From the IMG/VR virus record IMGVR_UViG_3300045391_006247: 64,000 nucleotides of DNA; one strand, written 5' to 3'. Positions 1,025 to 58,567 of this stretch are shown one piece after another. Below the pieces are notes generated by a model, which saw nothing but the letters and a program-made list of their open reading frames with translations, made no database searches and had not been told where the DNA came from. Positions within the stretch are counted from its first letter, which is position 1. Every line of letters begins with the position of its first letter. Origin of the DNA: a virus. A program made the translations under genes and the position numbers.

Positions 1025-1219
1025 GAGGCGATCGTTTATGAATATTAAGCTGTTCGGGCAAAAACTTATGGCTATAGACCGCAATGGGGTTTTCTTTATA
1101 CGATGGCGCATTACCTCTATATACAACCATCACGTTTCTTCGTCAAATTGGTACAAAGTGAAAGATTTGCCTTTCAATTTGCGAATCATTTGGCGTGAAG
1201 TTACAAGAATCGATCGCCC

Positions 1220-1552
1220 ATGACCACACACAACATCATCATTAAGGTTTTCCCCGACGATAATCAATGGTGCGCCGTGATTGAGAATCCCCCATCTTTT
1301 AGTGAGCCTGAGTTTGGACGGACTGCGGCAGAAGCAGTAGGGAAACTCTCCGATCGGCTTTGCTTGTTAGGGGAAGAACAAATAGAAGAGGATAGCGATC
1401 GTGTTGAAATCTCTAATGTCCCTCATGGGTTTGGGAAAGCTGGCACAATTAGCACGTTCACCGTAACTGCGATCAAGCCAATTGAATCGCCAATACAGGA
1501 AATCATTAAACGCATTGAGAACATCGAGCGGACACTAGGAATATTGCCATGA
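1220..1552 (+). CDS. Hypothetical protein, HicB-like N-terminal fold possible
   Basis: 110-aa ORF; IKVFPDDNQWCAVIE...FGRTAAEAVGKL resembles the HicB pattern. Confidence 0.4.
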   Translation: MTTHNIIIKVFPDDNQWCAVIENPPSFSEPEFGRTAAEAVGKLSDRLCLLGEEQIEEDSDRVEISNVPHGFGKAGTISTFTVTAIKPIESPIQEIIKRIENIERTLGILP

Positions 1553-9626: not shown

Positions 9627-11077
9627 TTGAATCTTGCCTGCAATAAACTACGTTGTTCAGCCGTTAGTCCACCAAAAAAGTCTTGAAGTGAAGTGTCTTT
9701 TTTGGGTGGTTCCGGCTCATGCATAATGTCCCCTAATCTCACCCTGTTCTGAGATTTGCTGAGTTGTTCAATGCGATCGATTCTGGCTTCCAACCCCGAA
9801 GAATCTATGCCGGAAGCTTTTGCTGCACTCAATATCTCAGCTTTTGAGTTCAGGATTGACTGAACATCCTCATTGTTAAGCTCAAGATCTCTAACTTTTT
9901 GGTTTGAAGCCTTCCGAGGATTGGAGGTGTCGTAACCAAACTTGTCTCGAACCAACGTGTTGACAGCTATATCAAGCTTGTCTTTTGGTGTGCCCAAGTT
10001 TTTCTGAGTTACTTCATGAAAAGCGAAGCCATGATCAAACAAAACAGGACTGCCACTTCCATCGACACTAATGTTTGCAGCATGTCGATCTGTATTACCA
10101 ATGATGTAGTCAAAAGCTATTACCTTCAAAGCATCCCGATCGCCGATCTTTTTAATTGCTTTAAGGTTTCCAATATTAGAAACCTCGTCTTTTTCCAAAA
10201 ACGGCATCACAACTGCTGTCTTTTTCTTGACAGTCACCTTTTCGATCGGAACGGTGATGCCATCCAACCCCATTCGTTTAGCGATCTCATAAGCAAGAGT
10301 CTCAATCTTTGCTTCTTTTAAGGGTGTCTGCTTCACGAAATAATCTTTGCCGTCAATACTCGTTTTGGAAATTAAACCCAAATCACCGGCGCCCGATTGA
10401 ACTTTTAATTTTTCAAAAGTTGTTTTGTCAAATTGATCTTGAGACGGGAACTTAACGGCTCTCGACTTTGAAACTGTTTTGACTTGACTCTTTTCGGGTG
10501 TAGGCTTAACTTTTGGACTGCTTGGCTCAGCTTTGTGTGATTCAACAATAGCTTTCACAACCTCGGATTGCTGCGGTGTTGGCTTGTATCGACAGTTCAA
10601 GCTCCCACCCTGGCATTTTTTGCCGCACAGCATATTACCGGGTTTGCAGGTTGGTGTTTTCCTAGTTTTAGTTGTGGTAGATGCAAACTCGATCGCCTCC
10701 ACCCAGTCTCTGTCGTCGGCTTCATTAAACTCTGACATGTTGGGATTCACGGATTGAACAGGCATCAGCTTGTAATCCCAAGCTTCGGGGGACATCGTGA
10801 ATTGATAAAACTGAGATTTGGCAAGACTCAGCTTTTGCTCTGCTTTCCCTTTGATCGTGCTAGTAACAGTGTCGATCGTCAAGTCGAAGACACGTTGAAT
10901 CACACCCCCCACTTCTTCATCAAGAAGCGATCGCACTCTCTCTAAAACCTGCGGACTGCTAACGGTCGTCTCGGAAAACACAACAAGTGTTAACTTTCCC
11001 TCTTTAATTGATTGAAACAATCGCCCCAACTCAGCAAAAGCTTCAATTCTACTCGCCATCATATTTCTAACCCCCAA
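9623..11077 (-). CDS. Cargo-family paralog 3: shared N-terminal module plus PI3/4-kinase/HipA-like kinase domain
   Basis: YFVK, E.LAYEIAKRMGL, FDYIIGNTDRHAAN and LFDHG kinase motifs; N-terminus near-identical to 24796..26442; likely start is ATG at 11062 or 11059. Confidence 0.85.
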   Translation of the reverse strand: MGVRNMMASRIEAFAELGRLFQSIKEGKLTLVVFSETTVSSPQVLERVRSLLDEEVGGVIQRVFDLTIDTVTSTIKGKAEQKLSLAKSQFYQFTMSPEAWDYKLMPVQSVNPNMSEFNEADDRDWVEAIEFASTTTKTRKTPTCKPGNMLCGKKCQGGSLNCRYKPTPQQSEVVKAIVESHKAEPSSPKVKPTPEKSQVKTVSKSRAVKFPSQDQFDKTTFEKLKVQSGAGDLGLISKTSIDGKDYFVKQTPLKEAKIETLAYEIAKRMGLDGITVPIEKVTVKKKTAVVMPFLEKDEVSNIGNLKAIKKIGDRDALKVIAFDYIIGNTDRHAANISVDGSGSPVLFDHGFAFHEVTQKNLGTPKDKLDIAVNTLVRDKFGYDTSNPRKASNQKVRDLELNNEDVQSILNSKAEILSAAKASGIDSSGLEARIDRIEQLSKSQNRVRLGDIMHEPEPPKKDTSLQDFFGGLTAEQRSLLQARFK

Positions 11078-24795: not shown

Positions 24796-26442
24796 TTACA
24801 CCCCCAAGAACTCTTCGTTAGCTAAATCAGCAAAATCCAAAGCTTCAAACGAATACCACCATTCGTCTGAAATTTCCGAGAAGTTGAGTTCTTTTTTAAG
24901 CTTGTTGTAAGCGTTATTTATTCTCTCAAATTCCTGAGAAGAACCACCTACGTCTGGATGCGCCTGCAAAGACGCTTTACGGTAAGCAGTTTTAATTTGC
25001 GCTGGGGTAGCGTCCTTGGAAACGCCAAGAACATCGCGAGATGCCGAGGGATGCAAAGCACCTTGCAAATGTCTTTTGATTAGCTCACGTTGACGGTTTT
25101 CAGTTGCAGCAGGTACTTCGCGATCGGGGGGTGGGGCATACTCTGCTTTAAATCCCAAGACTGATTCAAGCTGCTCTTGAATCGTTTTTTGATCTCCTTT
25201 TGCAATTCGAGTCTGGATTTTTTTGGCTGTCGCTTCTTGTTTTGCTTGATCCGCGTCGAATTCTTCTTCTACCCTCTTCCGTAGTTCGTCTTGCGATAAT
25301 TTCAGCCGATCGGTAAGCCGTTTAGCCGTAGCTTGAGCAGACTCTTTTTCGGTTTCTTGCTGCTTGAGCTGCTTTTCTAATTTTGCTTTGACAGTTGGCT
25401 TTGTCTTGGGGTTCGCAATTTTAGCTTTCGTAGCCTCGATCGTGGCGTCGGTTATAAACGCATACCGCTGCCAATCGCCGTAGTCAATTCCATCCGCATT
25501 TTTCTTGACGTTGTCTTCGTGGAGTTCCTTTGCAACTTGATTCAAGTAGGCATTCTTGTCTCCCATTGCACGCCTCACCTCGTCTGGGGCGTCCTCCCAA
25601 TATTGGGACCCAGAAGGTTTGTATCGCCTCTCCAACTTTGAGCGCAATGTCAACCCTTCGGCACTGGTGTTATAGGCGAGCTGATCTTTAATCCAACCGT
25701 CGATATCAGCGTTACTCGGGTTGTCAGAAGCGTACTTTTGATCGATTTTTTCTTGCTCTGACTTTGGTGTGGACGATTTAGATTCTGAATCAGACGATTT
25801 TGATTCGGTTTTCGTCAACTTGCCAGCAATAGGAGAGATCGACCCACCTTTCGTCGTCGGAGTGTCAGAAGTTGCCTCACTAGGACTTGTAGTAGTTTTC
25901 TTGGCTTTAGTCTTAGCCTTAGTTGCAACAGTCTCAACAGCTTGCGATTGCTCATGGCTCGGAGCGTAGCGGCAATTTTTCTTTCCGTCCTGGCATTTCC
26001 CTCCGCACTGTGTGTTACCCGGCTTGCAGTTGAGTTTTTTGGATGCCCTAGCCGATTTAGACTTAACCGCTGTCGCTGCAAACTCGATCGCCCCCGCCCA
26101 GTCCTCGTCGTTGTTCTCGTCAAACTCTGCCATTTCAGGATTGACGGACTGAGCAGGGATGAGTTTGTAATCCCAAGCCGATGGCGACATTGAGAACTGG
26201 TAAAACTGAGATTTTGCAAGACTTAGTTTTTGCTCCGCTTTACCCCTAAATGTGTTTGTGTTAGAGTCGATCGTCAAGTCGAAGACACGTTGAATCACAC
26301 CCCCCACTTCTTCATCAAGAAGCGATCGCACCTCTCCTAAAATTTCAGGGTCAGTAACGGGGATTGATTCAGAAAAGTTTTGACTCTCTTGATAAAGTTT
26401 TCCTAGTTCTACAAAAGCTTTAGCGCGATCGGTTAACAGCAT
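24796..26442 (-). CDS. Cargo-family paralog 2: shared N-terminal module plus C-terminal DnaJ J-domain
   Basis: RDVLGVSKDATPAQIKTAYRKASLQAHPDVGGSSQEFERINNAYNKL with intact HPD. Confidence 0.85.
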   Translation of the reverse strand: MLLTDRAKAFVELGKLYQESQNFSESIPVTDPEILGEVRSLLDEEVGGVIQRVFDLTIDSNTNTFRGKAEQKLSLAKSQFYQFSMSPSAWDYKLIPAQSVNPEMAEFDENNDEDWAGAIEFAATAVKSKSARASKKLNCKPGNTQCGGKCQDGKKNCRYAPSHEQSQAVETVATKAKTKAKKTTTSPSEATSDTPTTKGGSISPIAGKLTKTESKSSDSESKSSTPKSEQEKIDQKYASDNPSNADIDGWIKDQLAYNTSAEGLTLRSKLERRYKPSGSQYWEDAPDEVRRAMGDKNAYLNQVAKELHEDNVKKNADGIDYGDWQRYAFITDATIEATKAKIANPKTKPTVKAKLEKQLKQQETEKESAQATAKRLTDRLKLSQDELRKRVEEEFDADQAKQEATAKKIQTRIAKGDQKTIQEQLESVLGFKAEYAPPPDREVPAATENRQRELIKRHLQGALHPSASRDVLGVSKDATPAQIKTAYRKASLQAHPDVGGSSQEFERINNAYNKLKKELNFSEISDEWWYSFEALDFADLANEEFLGV

Positions 26443-50242: not shown

Positions 50243-50481
50243 TTAATTACGAATTAATTACGACAAAATAAAAGAACTCTGAAACGTTGTTAAATCAAGC
50301 ACTTCAGAGTTCTGCCGATCCTTTGAGAGGAAACCTCTACAACTCAAACCAAAAACCGCTAGAATCAAGCATTATCGGGTTTGTAAGCTTTGCTAGTTAA
50401 GCGTCTTACTTGTCATATAGTAGAAAAATGTAGATTTTTTTCAGAAATAGTAGAAGCTTTTTAATTACGATTTAATTACGA
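50243..50481. other. Candidate attP region with tandem arm-type repeats
   Basis: TTAATTACGA exact at 50243, 50254, 50461 and 50472 (two pairs, 11-bp period) flanking an AT-rich gap directly upstream of the integrase. Confidence 0.55.
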
Positions 50482-51572
50482 TGCCTAGAACACTTGAATC
50501 AATCAACGATCGCATTTCTGGGTCAGGGGTGAGAGTTGAGAAAAAAGGCAATAAGCTTTACCTCGTCAGCGTTTTACCTCCCCGTAGTGGAGAAGGGAAA
50601 GCTAAACAGCAGAAGATTGCACTGAAGATAAGCGATCGCACCCCATTGGAACTGGAACAAGCAGAGGGGCGAGCATTGGAGCTATTGAGCCAGAAAATTA
50701 AAGGGGAATTTAGTTGGTCGAAGTGGCGGCAGGGTAATGGTGAAGCGATCGCACAGGTGGAGAACCTTGGGACGCTGATTGAGCGATACAAACTCGATCG
50801 AACAATATCGGGCATGACTCCCGATCAATGGGCGAGGGAGTGGGAGTTCTTAAAGCGGTTGCCGATGGAGTCTCGCCCAACTAAAGAAGCGTTCCTTGAT
50901 GTGGTAGCGCGATCGGTTCCGAACACGGCAACTCGCAAGGAATATGTGACTCGGTTTAACCGGCTGATCAAATGGGCAGAGCTGGATATAGACCTATCCC
51001 CCTATCAATCGAACTACAGTGCCAGTCGCGTCAAACCTCGCCAGCTGCCCACTGATGAAATGATCGAACAGACTCGTGACTGGATTATCAGTGTCGATCG
51101 GGGGAGGATTCAGCGGCAGGCTTTAACCTGGCAATGGGTGTATGGTGTGCTCGCTGCGTATGGGCTAAGACCGCATGAAGTGATGTTCTGTCGAATTAGC
51201 TCAACCCCTCCCTATGCCTGCCATGTGACTGAAGGAAAGACAGGGAAGCGCACCGTCTACCCTTTTCATCCCCATTGGGTTGAACAGTGGAAGTTATGGG
51301 AAATGAACAAACCTAATGTGAGGTGCGATCGCGCTCATAGGAAGGTGGGGCAGTCGGTCACTGATTCGTTGAGGAGATATGGGGTTAACCTTCCCTATAA
51401 CCTAAGACACGCTTACTCATTAAGAGCACATGTAAAATACAATACCCCGCCACGAGTTGTAGCGGGGTTGATGGGGCATACTGTTGCAGTTTGGCAGAAG
51501 ACTTATTCTCGTTGGCTTAGGGATGATGACCTGCTGTCGTCTTATATGCGATCGATTAGCGGAGAGAGTTAA
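50481..51572 (+). CDS. int: Tyrosine recombinase (phage integrase)
   Basis: YGLRPHE (Arg I), KTGKR (Lys), YNLRHAY (HxxR variant), LMGH and downstream Tyr (KTYSRW). Confidence 0.92.
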   Translation: MPRTLESINDRISGSGVRVEKKGNKLYLVSVLPPRSGEGKAKQQKIALKISDRTPLELEQAEGRALELLSQKIKGEFSWSKWRQGNGEAIAQVENLGTLIERYKLDRTISGMTPDQWAREWEFLKRLPMESRPTKEAFLDVVARSVPNTATRKEYVTRFNRLIKWAELDIDLSPYQSNYSASRVKPRQLPTDEMIEQTRDWIISVDRGRIQRQALTWQWVYGVLAAYGLRPHEVMFCRISSTPPYACHVTEGKTGKRTVYPFHPHWVEQWKLWEMNKPNVRCDRAHRKVGQSVTDSLRRYGVNLPYNLRHAYSLRAHVKYNTPPRVVAGLMGHTVAVWQKTYSRWLRDDDLLSSYMRSISGES

Positions 51573-51762
51573 TTGCTTGGCATCGTTCCAAATGAACTAA
51601 CCAGGTTACTCGTTTAGCTCCGGGTGATTCAGGTTTGATGTGTTTACCCACCTTTAGCCACCCTTCTTTTTTGCCCTTCCTGATCCAATGCCGTAATGCG
51701 CTGACATCCTTTTTAGCAAGAGCTTCGTAGGCTTCGTCGGTTCTGTACCATTCACGAGTCAT
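51556..51762 (-). CDS. Excisionase-like / MerR-type winged helix
   Basis: LRHWIRKGKKEGWLKVGKH...VTWLVHLERC, convergent with and overlapping int; start at ATG 51762. Confidence 0.6.
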   Translation of the reverse strand: MTREWYRTDEAYEALAKKDVSALRHWIRKGKKEGWLKVGKHIKPESPGAKRVTWLVHLERCQAINSLR

Positions 51763-51926
51763 GTGCGATCGCCCTCCCTTGCTTCTAAATTCCAACATCG
51801 GTTTAAATATTTGCGGCGCATTTCATTCTCTAAAACAATCTGTTTTTCAAGCTTTTCGGTCAGATCTCGGAATTCATTGGTGAGAGTAATGAATTCTCGG
51901 ATGGAGTTGAGCAGACGTTTAATCAT
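51759..51926 (-). CDS. 55-aa protein, paralog of 52639..52806 (not in ORF track)
   Basis: MIKRLLNSIREFITLTNEF...CWNLEAREGDRT, ATGA-coupled both sides. Confidence 0.7.
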   Translation of the reverse strand: MIKRLLNSIREFITLTNEFRDLTEKLEKQIVLENEMRRKYLNRCWNLEAREGDRT

Positions 51927-52219
51927 GCCCGATCGCCCTCTTTGTCTAGAAAAGACTCAACAAGATCTTCAATGATTTCACTCATTTCTCTGTCAGATTC
52001 AATAGCTTTTACCTTTAGTTTTCTGTGAACAGATTTAGTCAAATAGACGGTTAACCGTTGATATGACGGATTTTTGCTTTTTGCAAGAATTACTTCATTT
52101 TGGTCAATAGTTTTCTTAGGTCTCGATGGCTCTATGTCGTACTGCTTTACAAGATCATCCCAAAACTCTGGGTTTGACTGTATTTCTTCTTGAACATGAG
52201 GAGGAAGCGCTCTATTCAT
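51923..52219 (-). CDS. Ribbon-helix-helix (ParG/CopG-like) protein
   Basis: RLTVYLTKSVHRKLKVKAIESDREMSEIIEDLV. Confidence 0.75.
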   Translation of the reverse strand: MNRALPPHVQEEIQSNPEFWDDLVKQYDIEPSRPKKTIDQNEVILAKSKNPSYQRLTVYLTKSVHRKLKVKAIESDREMSEIIEDLVESFLDKEGDRA

Positions 52220-52460
52220 ATCCGAGCGCCTTCCATGATTCCCGCACAAACCCTACTCTGATTTCTTGTTCTTGCTTTATCCGATTTAGCGCTAACTCTA
52301 ATTCAACTGCGATCGCTCTCAGGTCTTCATTGCAAGCCTTTCCCGCTATATACTCCTGCCTGATCGAATCTAGAAGTTTTGGGTCACTTGCCCATTGAAG
52401 GGATGTGATCAATTCATGAAGAGCAATCGCTTGGTTACTGTTTAGTTTCAGGTGAATCAT
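52212..52460 (-). CDS. Hypothetical protein
   Basis: Start at ATG 52460 after GGAGGGCGA. Confidence 0.6.
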   Translation of the reverse strand: MIHLKLNSNQAIALHELITSLQWASDPKLLDSIRQEYIAGKACNEDLRAIAVELELALNRIKQEQEIRVGFVRESWKALGYE

Positions 52461-52642
52461 TCGCCCTCCTGTGGCTTCAAGAACAGAAACAACGCAAAAC
52501 ACAAAGACGAAACACTGAGAAGCGCGATCGATTGGGCTGAGGGGTTGACGATCGTGGCAGCGAGGCGATCGGATGCGCCAAAGAGAAACGCTGCTGTTAG
52601 GGTCCAGAATATTCCCTGTCTGACTGCGAGTAGTTCGTTCAT
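52457..52642 (-). CDS. Two-TM small membrane protein
   Basis: Two hydrophobic segments; start at ATG 52642. Confidence 0.6.
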   Translation of the reverse strand: MNELLAVRQGIFWTLTAAFLFGASDRLAATIVNPSAQSIALLSVSSLCFALFLFLKPQEGE

Positions 52643-52806
52643 GGGCGATCGCTCCTTACTTCTAAACTCCAACACTTCTCTAGCAACTCTCGATCGCGCA
52701 TGACTTCTAGGGCTTCAACTCGCTCAGCTAGAACCGCGATCGGCTCTGCAAATTCGTTGGTGTGATCAAGCCATTCTTGGATGAATTTGAGAATGCGTTT
52801 AATCAT
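52639..52806 (-). CDS. 55-aa protein, paralog of 51759..51926 (not in ORF track)
   Basis: MIKRILKFIQEWLDHTNEF...CWSLEVRSDRP. Confidence 0.7.
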   Translation of the reverse strand: MIKRILKFIQEWLDHTNEFAEPIAVLAERVEALEVMRDRELLEKCWSLEVRSDRP

Positions 52807-53062
52807 GTCCGATCGCCCTCACTCTATCTCTTTCAACCTCTACGCTGCTCCATCCTTTCGCGCACATTACACCTTGGATATACCCAATCCACCGATGAGA
52901 TTTATCTGACTCCCACAACTTTCTGTTATTGATAATCTCGTGGCACATCCATCGCAAATAAGGAATACTCGTAGGCTCGGCAGTCTTCATGTGAAAAGTT
53001 GTTGAGTCAGCCAAAAGCAACGATTCAAGCAGGCTATAGGCTATCTTCCACGCTGGTTTCAT
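52799..53062 (-). CDS. Hypothetical protein
   Basis: KSHRWIGYIQGVM motif; start at ATG 53062. Confidence 0.65.
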   Translation of the reverse strand: MKPAWKIAYSLLESLLLADSTTFHMKTAEPTSIPYLRWMCHEIINNRKLWESDKSHRWIGYIQGVMCAKGWSSVEVERDRVRAIGHD

Positions 53063-53253
53063 GTCCGATCGCCCTCCCATCTACGCATTTCATGAGGCAT
53101 CCCTACCTGATCAGCCATCAAAGTTTTAGACAAGTTGTGCAAGTTGCGGCAGTCGTCGTACAGCTTGATTAACACTTGGGTCTTTTGCTCTGATGTCAGT
53201 GTCTCGATCGTGTTTATAAACGAGGCGCGGGCAAATTGTTCTTCAAGTGTCAT
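53059..53253 (-). CDS. Small protein resembling phycobilisome degradation protein NblA
   Basis: MTLEEQFARASF...LTSEQ...LIKLY...N..K.LM resembles the NblA pattern (LSLEQQF...S.EQ...L..LY); by eye only. Confidence 0.5.
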   Translation of the reverse strand: MTLEEQFARASFINTIETLTSEQKTQVLIKLYDDCRNLHNLSKTLMADQVGMPHEMRRWEGDRT

Positions 53254-53588
53254 GGGCGATCGCCTCTCAGCTTTAGTGCTTGTTTTGCGTATTTCAATGC
53301 CTGTTTTGCCTGATAAAAAGAAATTTTTTCTTGGTGCGATCGCCCATCATCAATTTGTCGTGTGAACTCGTAGCTAAGTTTTGTATGGCGCAGTCTGCCG
53401 TCACCAATTGCAATACCATCGCAAGCAACTTTGATTAGATCGTCTGGGCGCAAAGTCTTGAGGTAGTTTGCCAGTGGGCAATTGCAATCTGTTCGAGCAG
53501 TGCCAGCAATCGATCGCCCATGCTGGCGGTTTAGGTAGTCCTCAAAATCAGCCAAGTCTTCTAGCTGTTGTTCTAGGGGTGTACTCAT
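53250..53588 (-). CDS. Hypothetical protein
   Basis: Start at ATG 53588; CNCPLANYL motif. Confidence 0.6.
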   Translation of the reverse strand: MSTPLEQQLEDLADFEDYLNRQHGRSIAGTARTDCNCPLANYLKTLRPDDLIKVACDGIAIGDGRLRHTKLSYEFTRQIDDGRSHQEKISFYQAKQALKYAKQALKLRGDRP

Positions 53589-53812
53589 CACCGATCGCCT
53601 CCATCCAAAACAGGCAGCACCAACTCTTGAATCGATCGCATCTCCCCTGATGGTGGAATCAACCACAAAGCTTTCAGGGAGTAAAGCTGCACCACGACAC
53701 TGCGGGATTCTGCAATTTGTCTAGCCTCATCGATCGCGTAGGGGAGAGTCTTTGCGGGCAAGTACGCGATCGGTTTTCCTGTGACGTCCGTAACTACGTA
53801 ATGTGTGGGCAT
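53588..53812 (-). CDS. Hypothetical protein
   Basis: 74 aa, TGATG coupling. Confidence 0.6.
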   Translation of the reverse strand: MPTHYVVTDVTGKPIAYLPAKTLPYAIDEARQIAESRSVVVQLYSLKALWLIPPSGEMRSIQELVLPVLDGGDR

Positions 53813-54195
53813 CAGAAACCCTCCAATAGGGTCAATTGAATTGTGGCGCGTTTAATTTCCAACATTTCCAGTTTTTGCATCTTCTCCAAAACCTTCAGGA
53901 CTGCGGCATGAGTTAACACTTTGTTTCGCCCTGTGTCAGGGTCAGGCATTGTCTGCCATCTAAAAATGAAGTTGTCGAGGTCAAATGCCTGACCGTTTTC
54001 TTTGTCGATTGACAAGGCTGCGTAAATGAAGGCTGAATCGTTGAAGATACCTGCGCCCCACAGGTCTAGAATTTGGTCTTGAAGTGCTCCCCAAGTGCCG
54101 ATCGTTTCTTCTTCTGTTTCTAGGGGGACTTCGGAGTTGGGCACGATCGATGGGACTAAGCTCATTTGTGTTCTCGGTCTAGCTGCTGTTGACAT
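53812..54195 (-). CDS. Hypothetical, possible winged-helix protein
   Basis: 127 aa, TGATG coupling. Confidence 0.6.
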   Translation of the reverse strand: MSTAARPRTQMSLVPSIVPNSEVPLETEEETIGTWGALQDQILDLWGAGIFNDSAFIYAALSIDKENGQAFDLDNFIFRWQTMPDPDTGRNKVLTHAAVLKVLEKMQKLEMLEIKRATIQLTLLEGF

Positions 54196-54199
54196 AGTT

Positions 54200-54442
54200 T
54201 TATCCTGGATACTCGACTAAACAATCAACGGGAACACGTTTAGTAATCCCTGCTTCGGCATTGCCGATCGTTGCTACTCTTCGCCCCTGCACTGAGCCGA
54301 TCGCTTTTACAACGTAGATGTGGGCACTCCACCCAAAATTGTTTTGCTCGCAATCGCGTTCTTCGTAGTTCATGGGGATTTGACTGAGCCAGATTTCCCA
54401 TTTTTGAAGATCTCCCGCGACTACTTTTGACCCTGGCTTCAT
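54200..54442 (-). CDS. Hypothetical protein
   Basis: 80 aa, ATGA coupling. Confidence 0.6.
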   Translation of the reverse strand: MKPGSKVVAGDLQKWEIWLSQIPMNYEERDCEQNNFGWSAHIYVVKAIGSVQGRRVATIGNAEAGITKRVPVDCLVEYPG

Positions 54443-55278
54443 CCGATCGCTCCTTCTAAAACTTGATTAAATTCAGCAGGAAACTCTCTAATCTTCAAAT
54501 CGCTCGGAAATTCATCAATGTTGCCGCCATGAGAATCTGAAATACTCCATCGATCGCCGTCCATCGTCACTGGACTTTTGCCAAGTTGTTTAACCAAACA
54601 CGGAGTTTCGTTTGCTTGACACTGATGAACGACTCCACGAATTGCAGATAAGCTAGTCTCTCTAGCTTTTGAGCCGGACTCACCACCGACAATCACCCAA
54701 TCAACAGGATTAGATAACAAATACAAGTTCACACGACCTAGCAAGGGTTCGCAAGAATAAAAAACTTTAGATCCCCGTGAACGAACATCTTGCATATAAG
54801 GCGATCGCTCGTTGTACCTTTGCTGATCTTCAATCGTGCAGCCAAACCAAACATGGGGATTTTGGCGTGCCCATTTGCTAAAAAAATCGCCAGAAATACT
54901 CTCGACCATTGAAATAATGTTTTGAGGGCGCTTGGTCAGCAGCAGCCAATCTAAATTCTTGCAGCTTTCAATAACCCGAAACGCATCTTGCCGCCATTCT
55001 ACTGAGACTTCATTATCAAAAATATCTGCCAGCGACGAACAAAACACGCGATAGCGAATTCCAAGTTTTTCAGCTTGGCGATTCCATTTAGCAGGGTGTT
55101 TCCAGTTTGCTTCACTAGTGCGCGATCGCTCTTGCCCTGCACCCCACTTTACGCGACCATAGCGATCGTCCATCATGGTTTTGGCGTAGCAATTTGCACA
55201 ACCAGGGGAGACTTGAGTACAACCAATCCACGGATTCCAAGTGTGGTCAGTCCATTGAATATCACTGTTTTCTGCCAT
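54439..55278 (-). CDS. DUF5131 / phage Gp37-Gp68 radical-SAM-like protein
   Basis: IQWTDHTWNPWIGCTQVSPGCANCYA (CxxxxxxCxxC), VFCSSLADIF, LLTKRP, WVIVGGESG. Confidence 0.92.
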   Translation of the reverse strand: MAENSDIQWTDHTWNPWIGCTQVSPGCANCYAKTMMDDRYGRVKWGAGQERSRTSEANWKHPAKWNRQAEKLGIRYRVFCSSLADIFDNEVSVEWRQDAFRVIESCKNLDWLLLTKRPQNIISMVESISGDFFSKWARQNPHVWFGCTIEDQQRYNERSPYMQDVRSRGSKVFYSCEPLLGRVNLYLLSNPVDWVIVGGESGSKARETSLSAIRGVVHQCQANETPCLVKQLGKSPVTMDGDRWSISDSHGGNIDEFPSDLKIREFPAEFNQVLEGAIG

Positions 55279-55637
55279 TATCCGATCGCCCTCCCAGCTA
55301 CATCTGTTGTATAAAACTGTTGCATTCCTACATCGCTAATCCCATCAGGCAGGCAGTTTTCTCGAGATGCAAAATACCAATCATCGCCGTCAGGGGTTTT
55401 GAGGGACGCCCAAAACCTTTCGGGCAAATCACGCTGGAGTTCAATTAATTCATCGAGCTTTTCTCCGCCGATCGCCTGAACCAAAAGCATCGAATTAAGC
55501 AAGATTGGCTCCATGAGGAACCCCATAATCAGCATCCCAATTGCCTGCGATCGGTCGTAGTACAGGGTGAGGGTGTATTGTGCGGGCTTGCCGTAACCGG
55601 GAAAAAAGCTTTTGCGCTGTCTTGATCTCTTACCCAT
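55278..55637 (-). CDS. Hypothetical protein
   Basis: Start placed at ATG 55637 (MGKRSRQ), just below the paired operator. Confidence 0.6.
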   Translation of the reverse strand: MGKRSRQRKSFFPGYGKPAQYTLTLYYDRSQAIGMLIMGFLMEPILLNSMLLVQAIGGEKLDELIELQRDLPERFWASLKTPDGDDWYFASRENCLPDGISDVGMQQFYTTDVAGRAIG

Positions 55638-55650
55638 TAAATCTTTGATT

Positions 55651-55693
55651 GCGTAATTACACAACAATACTATCTTAAATAACGTAACTACGC
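55651..55693. promoter_or_regulatory. Paired operator
   Basis: GCGTAATTACAC at 55651 and ACGTAACTACGC at 55682. Confidence 0.7.
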
Positions 55694-56038
55694 AATAGTA
55701 GAACGCCAAGACGCCACCAAAATCCGATCGCGCTCTATCAATTCTTCGCGCCATGCCAGCAGCAGGGATACTGCCTCTTCAAACTCAGCACCGAATCGAC
55801 AAATCTTAGACTCGATCTCCCCTGTTGGCTTGTACTGCCAAGGTAAGTCGTGGTATTCGCGCCAGACTGAGCCGTAGGGAAGCCAATAGGCGATCGGGTC
55901 TAAGACGCTATGAAAGTTCTGGGTGGGGTCGTAGGGGGTAAATATGCCCTTCTGCATGTCGATACAAGTGCAGATGATGTAGGGGCGATCGGATTTTGGG
56001 GTGGGGGTGTCGAGGGTTAAGGTGAGTTGTTGGGTCAT
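55688..56038 (-). CDS. Hypothetical protein
   Basis: 116 aa, ATGA coupling. Confidence 0.6.
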   Translation of the reverse strand: MTQQLTLTLDTPTPKSDRPYIICTCIDMQKGIFTPYDPTQNFHSVLDPIAYWLPYGSVWREYHDLPWQYKPTGEIESKICRFGAEFEEAVSLLLAWREELIERDRILVASWRSTIA

Positions 56039-56226
56039 CCGATCGCCTCGCTAGTTGAAAATCTAAACAGACAGTCACCACATTCTCTGCGCCGATAAAT
56101 TGTGTTATCGCTTTTCCGATCGCGTGTTTCGAGTATGGATATCCGTTGACCGCCGCACTTAGGGCAGGGCATAACTGCGCTTAAAGATTTGCGATCGTGC
56201 CTTGGTTTTGTTCGTTGCGTTGTCAT
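56035..56226 (-). CDS. NrdR-like N-terminal zinc ribbon protein
   Basis: MPCPKCG...LETR...IYRRRECGDCLFRFSTSE. Confidence 0.8.
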   Translation of the reverse strand: MTTQRTKPRHDRKSLSAVMPCPKCGGQRISILETRDRKSDNTIYRRRECGDCLFRFSTSEAIG

Positions 56227-56435
56227 CCAATCGCCTCCAATTGTGAATGCCACCAATAAGCCGATCGCCCTTCCCGATCTAGCCTGTAGTACGGTTCTGA
56301 CTCACTCCGCATCAATTTCAAGGGGCGATTGCCGTCAAACCCTGTGTTGCCTGCCACGCAAGCCATCACTACTTCGTATTGCAGGGCGGGATTGCCTTTG
56401 AGTTGAACGCAATCGCCCGGTTGGAATGGGGTCAT
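56223..56435 (-). CDS. Hypothetical protein
   Basis: Start at ATG 56435 (MTPFQPGD). Confidence 0.6.
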   Translation of the reverse strand: MTPFQPGDCVQLKGNPALQYEVVMACVAGNTGFDGNRPLKLMRSESEPYYRLDREGRSAYWWHSQLEAIG

Positions 56436-56944
56436 GCGATCGCCTCCCCGTTTTCCATGTCGCACAACAACGAATGCGCGATTAATCCCGCATCAGCCCT
56501 GTTGTGGTTGCGTTTAACCGATCGCGGAGCCTTGTATATCAGGCTATGGCGACACTCAGGATAGAGCGCGATTAATTGCGCGATCGATGCATCTTTTGAC
56601 TCTCCTGTTAACCCTGACGATCGTTTCCACTTGGCAGCAGGGACACACTCAACGGGAATGCCGAGGGTTTGCAGGACACTAACGCACATCTGCTGATGCT
56701 TGATTAGGGATAGGACGCGCCAAACAGAGCCCTTTTGAATATCTCCCCACCAAATCGTTTGGTCTTCTATGCGACCAATACAGGACAAGTGCAGGAAGGG
56801 AGAAACGATCGCGGATAATGATTTCTCTTCATTGAGTCCGGGTAGGTCTTGGATTGCGATCGCGCCATCAGGGGTGATAATCGCGATCGCGCCTTTGGAG
56901 TTTTCGGCTACGCCTGGGTCGATGCCGATGATGACTGGCTTCAT
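56432..56944 (-). CDS. RuvC-like Holliday junction resolvase
   Basis: IIGIDPG, IED, VPAAKWK, RADAGLIA acidic motifs. Confidence 0.8.
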   Translation of the reverse strand: MKPVIIGIDPGVAENSKGAIAIITPDGAIAIQDLPGLNEEKSLSAIVSPFLHLSCIGRIEDQTIWWGDIQKGSVWRVLSLIKHQQMCVSVLQTLGIPVECVPAAKWKRSSGLTGESKDASIAQLIALYPECRHSLIYKAPRSVKRNHNRADAGLIAHSLLCDMENGEAIA

Positions 56945-57222
56945 TTCACCGCCTCAATCAAACTTTGCGCCATCCGATCGCCCTTTGCTGTCTGCTCGTA
57001 GTATCCAGGTGTGGGATGAATCCAAATCAAGCCGTACTTTCGCAGGGATTGAACAGCTTTAATAACGCGATCGGGGGAAATCATCCCTTCTCGGATTGCC
57101 CCGAGGATCATTGACTCGTCGGAGTTGGGATTAGCGCCGATCGCGAGTAAGACTAGGGCTTCGTCTAGGGTGAGCTGTGGGGTGAGGATGCCTAAAGCTT
57201 CGAGAAATTTCTTGAATATCAT
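56941..57222 (-). CDS. Winged-helix-like hypothetical protein
   Basis: 93 aa, ATGA coupling. Confidence 0.6.
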   Translation of the reverse strand: MIFKKFLEALGILTPQLTLDEALVLLAIGANPNSDESMILGAIREGMISPDRVIKAVQSLRKYGLIWIHPTPGYYEQTAKGDRMAQSLIEAVK

Positions 57223-58223
57223 GATGCTACTCCTGCGATCGCTTTTGCTAAATTACACGGGACACCATTGCCAATTATTTTTGATGCAAGTTTTGAGTTG
57301 TTGGGCAGTTCGTACCAGTCGGGCAGGGTTTGCAATCTAGCCAAGCATCGAGCATTCAGCGCTACTATTCGCCCTTCGTCCCAAGCTCTGACAGGTTTTT
57401 TATTCTGACTTGCTTTAAGAGTGAAGCAAGGTTCTTGACGATCGCGGATCGTCACGGATGATCCGCGATCGTTCGCAGTGCCATCAACCAAAAATGCTCG
57501 CCTTGGTGCAATTGATGTGCTGACCGTAAACGAAGGACTACCACCTACCCGGTAGTTAAGCCCTCCTTTTTCAAGCGATCGAGCGTTTTGCCCATCAACT
57601 AAAATTGACGAATAAACTTCCGGCATTAAATCAAGTTGCCACTGGGCAAAACTTGATTCTGGCAATAAAGGAATTAAATCCTCGATCGACTCATACCATC
57701 CCTGCCATTTTGTTGACTCCGACAATGGCGCAGGGAAGCCACCTAAAACCGCTCGTAAAATCAATCGCTTGCGGTTCTGGGGAACGCCATAGTCAGCAGC
57801 GTCTAGGATGTCTACGTTGCACCAATAACCCAAACCCCAAAGGGTATCCACAATCTTTCGAAATGACCAGAAAACACGGTATCCGGCAACGTTCTCAAGG
57901 GTAAAAGATTTGGGCTTGAAGCACTCGATCGCCTCGCAACAGGAAAGGGAGATCGCTTTATCTAGTTCACCTTCACCACCTTTTGAGTTGGCGATAGAAG
58001 CATTCTGACAGGGTGGAGAAATGTGCAAGTGGTCTGGGCGTTCCGCGTTATGCCAATTGAATCCGATCGCAGAGTCCACGTAGACTTTGTGCTTGAGATT
58101 GGCAGATGCAACTTCGGCGATTGACGGTTCTATTTCAATCCCCCAAATGGGATTAAGTCCAGCAGACTGAAACCCAATATCTGCAAGTCCTCCACCAGTG
58201 CAAATTGAAGCAAAAGTTTTCAC
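57219..58223 (-). CDS. DNA cytosine-5 methyltransferase
   Basis: FASICTGGG (motif I variant), SPPCQ, LENV, DAADYGVPQNRKR, RLQTLPD, IGNGVP; GTG start 58223. Confidence 0.92.
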   Translation of the reverse strand: MKTFASICTGGGLADIGFQSAGLNPIWGIEIEPSIAEVASANLKHKVYVDSAIGFNWHNAERPDHLHISPPCQNASIANSKGGEGELDKAISLSCCEAIECFKPKSFTLENVAGYRVFWSFRKIVDTLWGLGYWCNVDILDAADYGVPQNRKRLILRAVLGGFPAPLSESTKWQGWYESIEDLIPLLPESSFAQWQLDLMPEVYSSILVDGQNARSLEKGGLNYRVGGSPSFTVSTSIAPRRAFLVDGTANDRGSSVTIRDRQEPCFTLKASQNKKPVRAWDEGRIVALNARCLARLQTLPDWYELPNNSKLASKIIGNGVPCNLAKAIAGVAS

Positions 58224-58567
58224 GCTGCCTTCCTCTCGCGTAGTCTTGTAAGTCCCAATCGCTGTTGTGGGGTAAGCGCTTCCCATACCTGCAACTTTTG
58301 GGCAGGGGTGAGATGGGTTAGTAAGTCCATATCTTCTACAGAAACGCTCTCTAGAATCGCGATCGCCACTGCGGTGAGGGTTTCTATCTCCGACTCGTTT
58401 AACGCGCTCTCAGAGCGATCGGGAGAGCAATCAGCGAGCATTGCAGGCGTGTTATTGGGCAATCCCATCAGAACTACCTCGCCATTCTTTTTTAATCGTC
58501 GGGTGACGGTGAAGGCTCCGTGCTGTTTATGAAAGGCGCGATCGCCCACGTTCGGAATCCAGGACAT
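58220..58567 (-). CDS. Hypothetical protein
   Basis: 115 aa, first gene after the paired operator at 58583. Confidence 0.65.
   Translation of the reverse strand: MSWIPNVGDRAFHKQHGAFTVTRRLKKNGEVVLMGLPNNTPAMLADCSPDRSESALNESEIETLTAVAIAILESVSVEDMDLLTHLTPAQKLQVWEALTPQQRLGLTRLRERKAA

Follow-up and report, generated by a model that had tools for sequence, protein, structure and literature searches.

A Shine-Dalgarno and HIP1 joint between the small genes of a cyanophage operon: a possible dual-purpose seam for single genes

The locus described here raises the question of why one short string, a Shine-Dalgarno (SD) run fused to the hexamer CGATCG, stands before the start codons of so many genes of a single operon. 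The operon is located on the minus strand of a 64-kb stretch of the 69.8-kb virus record IMGVR_UViG_3300045391_006247 of IMG/VR; this 64-kb stretch is called the window throughout, and window coordinates refer to it. The record encodes a portal, a large terminase, a major head protein, a primase-helicase, a Dda-like helicase, a C5 cytosine methyltransferase, a Holliday-junction resolvase and a XisA/C-like tyrosine recombinase, and is therefore assigned to a temperate tailed cyanophage. CGATCG is the core of HIP1 (GCGATCGC), the highly iterated palindrome of cyanobacteria, a repeat whose function has been debated for some 30 years, and for which surveys of host genomes have reported no positional preference at the level of genes. 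Here the core occupies one precise slot, from the ribosome site to the start codon, and only in accessory operons of phages and mobile elements. In the reading preferred below, to which an even chance may be given, this joint would be a portable, dual-purpose gene seam of temperate cyanophages and integrated elements hosted by CGATCG-rich filamentous cyanobacteria, in which a strong SD run (GGAGG), the HIP1 core ((G)CGATCG(C/G)) and a stop/start overlap would be fused.

At 11 of the 18 starts of the operon (minus strand, 51.7-56.5 kb) a purine run, which may be GAG, GAGG, GGAGG or GGGAGGG, is directly followed by CGATCG, by 1, 3 or 4 nt (spacing classes N1, N3 and N4) and by ATG. An earlier reading of the letters alone (the sequence-only reading) had listed these 11 junctions, and all are present and correctly placed. 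The two variants that it reported at 56223 and 52457 are real, and a third decayed copy has been added at 52212-52234; these three further starts (56223, 52457, 52212) carry one- or two-base changes. Junctions without the joint include 55637, 54195 and 53812. Gene starts agree with those called independently on a Logan contig that hosts the same genes. The operon and its joints are as follows.

51556-56944, minus strand: joint-bearing operon of 18 tightly packed, mostly small genes (55-279 amino acids), from open reading frames (ORFs) and independent gene calls
56432-56448, minus strand: joint GGGAGGCGATCGCATGA, upstream tail AIA-stop, N1, full HIP1 octamer
56223-56238, minus strand: decayed joint GGAGGCGATTGGATGA (variant GGAGGCGATTGG), tail AIG-stop
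56035-56049, minus strand: joint GAGGCGATCGGATGA, tail AIG-stop, N1
55276-55295, minus strand: joint GGGAGGGCGATCGGATAATG, tail AIG-stop, N4, TAATG overlap, precedes the DUF5131 gene
54439-54453, minus strand: joint GGAGCGATCGGATGA, tail AIG-stop, N1
53586-53602, minus strand: joint GGAGGCGATCGGTGATG, tail GDR-stop, N3, 5' edge of the gene shared with G414
53250-53266, minus strand: joint GAGGCGATCGCCCATGA, tail GDRP-stop, N3, full HIP1, 3' edge of the gene shared with G414
53059-53078, minus strand: joint GGGAGGGCGATCGGACATGA, tail GDRT-stop, 18-bp repeat partner of the joint at 52799-52820
52799-52820, minus strand: joint GAGGGCGATCGGACATGATTAA, upstream gene reads another frame (RAIGHD-stop)
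52639-52655, minus strand: joint GGAGCGATCGCCCATGA, tail SDRP-stop, full HIP1
52457-52469, minus strand: decayed joint GGAGGGCGAATGA (variant GGAGGGCGA)
52212-52234, minus strand: decayed joint GGAAGGCGCTCGGATATGAATAG (GGCGCTCGG), one mismatch in the hexamer
51923-51940, minus strand: joint GAGGGCGATCGGGCATGA, tail GDRA-stop
51759-51778, minus strand: joint GGGAGGGCGATCGCACATGA, tail GDRT-stop, full HIP1

The joint is not strictly the fixed linker that had been claimed. Three SD registers are found, and the hexamer is separated from ATG by 1 nt (starts 56435, 56038 and 54442), by 3 nt (53588, 53253, 53062, 52806, 52642, 51926 and 51762) or by 4 nt (55278). The full HIP1 octamer GCGATCGC is present in four of the 11 joints only (51765, 52645, 53256 and 56436); the remaining seven read CGATCGG, and match seven of the eight octamer bases (GCGATCGG). 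The CGATCG core is exact in all. Stop and start codons overlap at each of the 11 joints, as ATGA in eight, and as TGATG, TAATG or ATGATTAA in the remainder. The SD sequence lies within the last codons of the upstream gene, the purine run ending 7-11 nt before ATG. This is the classical layout for a predicted translational coupling, and the coupling role proposed by the sequence-only reading fits the anatomy. Unrelated proteins end, as had been remarked, in GDR followed by P, T or A, or in AI followed by G or A; GDR, SDRP and AIGHD tails are also found.

CGATCG is so frequent in the phage (447 copies in 69.8 kb, or 6.4/kb, evenly spread) that its presence before starts had to be weighed against a high background. 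The octamer is found 91 times in the 69.8 kb, and 86 times in the window versus 1.25 expected from shuffles. The hyper-abundant unit in phage and host family is the hexamer, not the octamer, and 70% of the GATC sites of the phage fall within CGATCG. The background predicts the hexamer in the slot at 2.6% of starts, that is at about 0.5 of 18; it is seen at 11 of 18 (binomial p 8e-14), and the enrichment before starts that the sequence-only reading requires is borne out. Only two of the 78 other starts of the phage carry the hexamer in the slot (Fisher 2e-8 versus the operon). The difference holds among SD-bearing starts, with 11 of 15 in the operon and none of about 45 elsewhere in the phage (Fisher 4e-9), many of the latter being stop/start overlaps too. 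Relaxed constraint in spacers and C-terminal tails was considered as the cause of the 61% occupancy, and was ruled out because CGATCG density is about the same in coding (6.3/kb) and non-coding (7.0/kb) DNA of the phage. The observation is real and strongly non-random.

The joint could still be a passive by-product, if a host-wide process generating CGATCG had fixed the hexamer beside G-rich SD runs, GG plus CGATCG making up most of the extended HIP1 sequence GGCGATCGCC, and local duplication had spread the result with no role for the hexamer. The consensus over 38 junctions is in line with such an origin: it reads GGAGG(G)-CGATCG-C-(C/A)(C/A)-ATGA or, in another notation, GGAGG(G)CGATCGC(C)(C)ATGA, and SD and extended HIP1 overlap in it by GG. 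The three decaying joints of the operon also agree with it, as do tandem Uma2 paralogs of the host family, which acquire the joint simply through duplication. The same process, however, has left SD-bearing starts elsewhere in the phage without the hexamer, and CGATCG is no richer in non-coding than in coding DNA. Moreover, the genes that follow the joints differ in fold and size and are unrelated, so that most of them cannot derive from a single duplicated unit.

Host genomes and other mobile elements bear on the same point. In 400 kb of the complete genome of a member of the host family (G437) the joint hexamer is found at three of 368 called starts (5.4 expected), at one of 144 SD-bearing starts and at none of 47 coupled junctions. 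A metagenome-assembled genome of the family (G001, Coleofasciculaceae; 6.8 CGATCG/kb in locus L009) hosts 52 composite matches in 6.3 Mb. Their density, about 0.008/kb versus 2.3/kb in the operon, is some 280 times lower, and close to a rough chance estimate. Since both genomes are at background, the joint is no habit of the hosts, which accords with a survey of 20 genomes in which HIP1 was not associated with start codons (Xu et al. 2018, PMC5861425). The few matches that cluster in family genomes belong either to operons of small genes in integrated elements or to tandem Uma2 arrays. The former include five joints in G001:C909, placed on both sides of a XisA/C-like integrase gene, five or six in G414:C61, adjoining an unrelated integrase and a Xis-like gene, and three in G430:C150. 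Two HIP1-rich viral contigs unrelated to the phage carry the joint at 10 of 99 starts (G458; 1.9 expected, p 2e-5) and at four of 90 (G457). In all, 25 of 285 phage starts bear the joint, versus three of 368 host starts. In relatives of G458 (54-57% identity) the homologous large gene lacks the joint, and another junction with CGATCG in the spacer is common to those relatives. The joint is typical of accessory operons of phages and mobile elements, and not of hosts. Its recurrence in unrelated elements, together with its presence at one of 144 SD-bearing starts of a host, makes the by-product explanation distinctly improbable.

A few related structures have been noticed. Uma2-family genes, which encode putative restriction endonucleases, form tandem arrays in host-family genomes (L089, G439:C419, 598-3101; L090, G425:C62, 6255-6906, about 4256-4907 in L090), and an AGGAGG-CGATCG-CC-ATGAC joint precedes each copy. 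Three related viral contigs (L128 at 4110, L129 at 5088 and L130 at 6751) conserve an AAAGG-CGATCG-CCCAA-ATG junction, the SD sequence of which is weak; GAUC would provide most of the predicted pairing with ribosomal RNA (rRNA). In the phage itself, one joint-like site is located outside the operon (1025-1223, plus strand). It reads TGA-GAGG-CGATCG-TTT-ATG, directly follows a gene encoding 1629 amino acids, and opens an ORF of 61 amino acids.

An explanation that the sequence-only reading, partly supported overall, had missed is that the string serves translation only. The hexamer would be kept since GAUC extends the pairing of SD and anti-SD, and ribosomes would be retained for re-initiation at the overlapping stops and starts of short phage genes; mosaicism at the boundaries would then be ordinary phage mosaicism. 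The 16S rRNA of the host family ends GGAUCACCUCCUU (the tail is confirmed in G437), and GGAGG-C-GAUC matches nine of ten bases of the complement of the tail GAUCACCUCC. When joints were folded against the tail GAUCACCUCCUUU by RNAduplex, GAUC was paired in 11 of 11. The mean duplex free energy is -14.4 kcal/mol for the joints, -10.4 when the hexamer is shuffled and -6.0 for the other 83 phage genes, the GAUC core contributing about 4 kcal/mol. When only SD-bearing starts are compared, the excess is still confined to phages; this would be expected if phages required stronger sites than their hosts, which are largely SD-independent. The extra pairing computed in this way would be a non-recombinational reason for keeping the hexamer, and is a serious rival to a role as seam.

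Several features of the joints are nevertheless at odds with selection for pairing. The perfect complement, TGATCC, is absent from all of them, and the bases flanking GATC in the hexamer, C and G, both mismatch the rRNA. The register of GGAG relative to GATC varies, five being in register, five at +1 and two at -1. The G that follows the hexamer, private to this operon, does not match the rRNA, although a C in its place would. GGAGGTGATC is found once in 565 kb of phage and cyanobacterial loci poor in HIP1, as is GGAGG-N-GATC before ATG. The notion of an extended SD later converted to HIP1 was rejected on the same ground, GAUC-extended SDs being essentially missing from these loci. Pairing also leaves unexplained the blocks of phase classes, the 18-bp repeats and the joints of 28-31 nt shared by otherwise unrelated DNA, all described below. 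As a complete account translation only is unlikely, less so than the by-product; stronger ribosome binding is likely a second benefit of the same string, and not the whole story.

Self-complementary joints might, alternatively, act on RNA as the tag of a regulon, a common ribosome-binding signature or the pairing of joints with each other letting one factor switch the operon, as T4 RegA and RegB do at early ribosome-binding sites. In the minimum free energy fold of the downstream half of the operon (2 kb) joints do pair with other CGAUCG sites, for example 51935 with 51771, one gene being enclosed. Internal sites pair equally, however, as in any HIP1-rich RNA, and the joint is present in unrelated elements that share no candidate factor, which makes such a tag very improbable. 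All the readings other than seam, translation and by-product, this one included, together have a small chance.

Signs of copying are found within the operon. Of the 11 joints, seven read CGATCGG, whereas a G after the hexamer is found at only 21% of phage sites and at about one of 26 joints of other elements, in which C is dominant (our own binomial estimate for the excess in the operon is about 0.003). Phase classes are arranged in two blocks, joints read in the AIG frame (N1 and N4) at 56.4-54.4 kb and N3 joints at 53.6-51.7 kb. Six of the seven N3 joints yield GDR-type tails, the one at 52806 being read RAIGHD-stop. The probability of this segregation by chance is 0.0025. A gene for 87 amino acids (52799-53062) is flanked by a perfect direct repeat of 18 bp, made by its two joints (53059-53078 and 52799-52820). 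The private CGATCGG signature and the two blocks suggest copying rather than convergence.

Three gene-sized blocks of homology end at joints, one of them a pair of paralogs in the window, the others two cases shared between elements. The genes of the operon involved are listed.

53250-53588, minus strand: gene, 112 amino acids, with a close copy in G414:C61
51759-51926, minus strand: gene, 55 amino acids, paralog of 52639-52806
52639-52806, minus strand: gene, 55 amino acids, second copy of the paralog pair

The paralogs are 95% identical at the upstream joint and in the first codons, 25-50% in mid-gene and again 75-80% at the 3' end and joint; identity falls to background immediately outside both joints. 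The joint DNA preceding the two copies is read in different frames, EGDRA-stop and RAIGHD-stop, by two unrelated upstream genes. The conserved entity is therefore a nucleotide sequence, and not a peptide tail. The second block is the 112-amino-acid gene, the copy of which in G414:C61 is 82% identical as protein and 78% as DNA. The DNA similarity is restricted to 53247-53603: at one end it extends to the 5' joint, at the other it continues without a break across the 3' joint as far as ATGACAC, and none of the neighbouring genes are related. No other gene of the operon has a close copy elsewhere, and nothing else was shared when the operon DNA was compared with 57 family genomes. The third block is a gene for 99 amino acids of the G414 operon, found as an 87% identical DNA copy in G433:C3 over exactly the gene, with its 3' end at a joint. 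In addition, loci L027 and L030 share in blastn comparisons only two joints (28 and 31 nt), and upstream of one of them lie XRE-type homologs that are just 47% identical as proteins.

These observations may be accounted for by a seam of double use. The 12-19 nt common to joints would be the site at which single genes are duplicated, deleted or exchanged within and between elements; they have at their centre a motif for which stimulation of homologous recombination has been reported in cyanobacteria. In transformation, homologous HIP1 sites are reported to raise recombination-dependent integration up to 7-fold when unmethylated and more than 100-fold when methylated, a behaviour described as 'reminiscent of a Chi site' (Kamoku and Nielsen 2024 preprint). 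A crossover between joints of the same phase class would preserve SD, spacing and stop/start overlap; with these signals left intact, the arriving gene would therefore be expressed at once. Joints would for this reason travel with genes, and accumulate where gene turnover is highest, as in an accessory operon of small genes, with no accumulation in structural operons of the phage or in operons of the host. A tract elsewhere in the window looks like the product of gene conversion. Two paralogs otherwise 75-80% identical share 66 identical bp (10871-10936 and 26266-26331); the tract, which extends 2 nt upstream of one CGATCG at its beginning and 3 nt past another at its end, would fit recombination tracts ending at the motif.

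Other data weigh against a recombination seam. With only 12-19 nt in common, and three spacings, the joints offer little length for exchange of the RecA type. The 5' boundary of the 99-amino-acid gene is the ATG of a junction that lacks CGATCG in both G414 and G433, so that the hexamer is missing from both partners at one of the four inter-element boundaries. In more remote homologs of the 112-amino-acid gene (51-55% identity; L084 and L085) coupling to the neighbouring genes does without the hexamer; the joint is therefore a property of operons, and not of a gene family. All the breakpoints observed coincide with gene boundaries, and in any phage selection places surviving breakpoints at these. 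Lastly, no close relative of the phage, from which indel breakpoints might be mapped, was found in the databases searched. A search of the GenBank phage collection by blastn returned a single irrelevant match of 177 nt, and one of IMG/VR with the DUF5131 protein, the primase-helicase, the capsid protein and the resolvase gave at best 43% amino acid identity. JGI metagenomes searched with a primase profile yielded HIP1-poor contigs at about 35% identity, and none of 5.8 billion proteins exceeded 53% identity to the DUF5131 protein. Protein searches with three other genes of the operon gave no matches, and the operons of L027 have no DNA relatives within family genomes. Among species-representative genomes there was one match, L009, in which the primase is 60% identical, the operon content is different and a single joint is found.

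The idea of the sequence-only reading that the joint is a seam for gene shuffling holds in part. Gene-sized blocks do end at joints in three cases, and joints are specific to accessory operons of phages and mobile elements; but breakpoints coincide with gene boundaries, one of the four inter-element boundaries lacks CGATCG in both partners, and recombination within the joint is no more than a candidate mechanism. Several independent, though indirect, lines of comparison point to shuffling as a possible process. A broader proposal, that HIP1 cores in ribosome-binding sites make up an integrase-free cassette system of the cyanobacterial mobilome, through which elements of HIP1-rich hosts would trade ready-to-express single genes at SD-HIP1-start seams, is offered tentatively, as possible but somewhat doubtful. 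Were it true, HIP1 would act as a hot spot of recombination, would strengthen ribosome binding as well, and would in this way shape the accessory gene pools of phages.

The same sequence-only reading had called the joints integron-like. The likeness is that of arrays of small, unrelated, co-oriented genes lacking promoters of their own and separated by a repeated element. Integrons follow instead the logic of attC, IntI, attI and Pc. Neither IntI nor attI is found here, and expression would be based on the predicted coupling, rather than on a shared promoter alone. No attC-like folded site, an imperfect inverted repeat of 57-141 bp with R and L boxes, is found at the junctions, where joints measure 15-20 nt and contain a perfect palindrome of 6-10 bp, with no inverted repeat of greater length. 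The adjoining recombinase is XisA/C-like, and no IntI with an adjacent attI and Pc is present. The term is thus not upheld.

The neighbourhood of the operon suggests a variant of the same idea, in which joints would be the sites of a site-specific cassette system driven by the adjacent integrase. The first gene of the operon encodes the Holliday-junction resolvase (56432-56944; phrog_1770, E 8e-18), the last a Xis-like protein of 68 amino acids, convergent with the XisA/C-like integrase gene (50481-51572, plus strand). The integrase, which has a XisAC_2nd domain match, is thus encoded at the distal, convergent end of the operon. Other domains found in the operon are DUF5131, a NrdR zinc ribbon and RHH. 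Joint-rich operons abut an integrase gene in L027 and L098 also. The same joints, however, adjoin an unrelated integrase in the G414 element. They are lacking in 20 other neighbourhoods of the XisA/C-like integrase family from other cyanobacteria, which are HIP1-poor as well, and hence uninformative on mechanism. A perfect palindrome of 6-10 bp is moreover unlike the long imperfect repeat of attC, and the hexamer is repeated 447 times in the phage. A site-specific system is the least probable of the explanations considered, and hardly to be expected.

Three further systems are worth comparing with the seam proposed here. In lambdoid phages short conserved boundary or linker sequences, located at module junctions, have been proposed by the modular theory as homology for the exchange of modules. 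Those linkers are sporadic and phage-specific, and are neither ribosome-binding sites nor host-wide repeats; the joints are both.

The closest analogue is the promoter-early stem-loop (PeSL) cassette, a mobile regulatory cassette that T4-type phages carry in their hyperplastic regions (Arbiol et al. 2010, PMC2839356; Comeau et al. 2014, PMC4122927). As with the joints, a short repeated expression signal lies between small non-essential ORFans, and recombination between copies is held to insert, delete or swap expressed genes. PeSLs are transcriptional signals, made of a sigma-70 promoter and a terminator stem-loop spanning tens of bases, whereas the joint is a translational signal of 15-20 nt based on a host-wide palindrome. 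Joints lie inside overlapping coding sequences, which leave no room for a promoter or a terminator, and the likeness is functional only. Recombination of PeSLs was shown by mini-circles and by comparison of closely related phages, whereas exchange at the joints is inferred.

Repeats of the HIP1 type (Xu et al. 2018; Elhai 2015, PMC4390886; Kamoku and Nielsen 2024 preprint) share with the joints the same core, which is hyper-abundant in this phage, and are reported to behave like recombination hot spots in transformation. In host genomes they show no preference for start codons, whereas in joints the core is confined to the slot from SD to start and to mobile DNA, with the full octamer in four of 11. 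No paper placing HIP1 at phage gene junctions, or tying it to SD sites, was found in a literature search. If the seam is a true recombination point, the Chi-like behaviour of HIP1 would be linked to single-gene turnover in cyanophages, and the PeSL cassettes of T4-type phages would have in the joint a counterpart acting in translation. If translation alone accounts for it, HIP1 cores would be part of an extended SD sequence in phage genes, which would also be new. The joint may in addition be used as a marker for accessory-gene slots in uncultured cyanophages.

Some minor observations concern the source and the surroundings of the operon. The sole public sequencing run found to contain the stretch is a soil metagenome, probably the source sample, the contigs of which cover almost nothing of the joint region. 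The C5 cytosine methyltransferase gene (PF00145, E 2e-38) is located at 57219-58286 on the minus strand, codirectional with the series of joints and just upstream of it. If the encoded enzyme targets CGATCG, it would connect with the methylation-dependent effects of HIP1 in transformation. At the end of G414:C61 a repeat of about 140 bp (L083, 19466-19606) is found, which is multicopy, often contig-terminal, and present in at least 20 family genomes at 73-100% identity; it is probably a miniature inverted-repeat transposable element or the end of an insertion sequence. Outside the operon, CGATCG is enriched just 3' of stop codons, in 10 of 96 genes versus about three expected; the hexamer begins at +4 to +8, counted from the first stop-codon base. 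Positions include 1024, 3190, 15173, 21313, 24699, 42023 and 45841, and TAG-GCGATCGC is found three times.

A second motif, GTAAYTACG, often part of a 10-bp palindrome (CGTAATTACG), is present in 19 copies versus 0.37 expected, at positions that include 23943, 29877, 44062, 44092, 49967, 50207, 55652, 55684, 58585, 63224 and 63676. Copies are mostly found in AT-rich gaps just upstream of genes leading operons, and the sole long gap of the joint operon (55640-55690) also contains the motif. Similar motifs lie upstream of homologous genes in L009, and GTAAYTACG is a likely promoter or operator of the phage.

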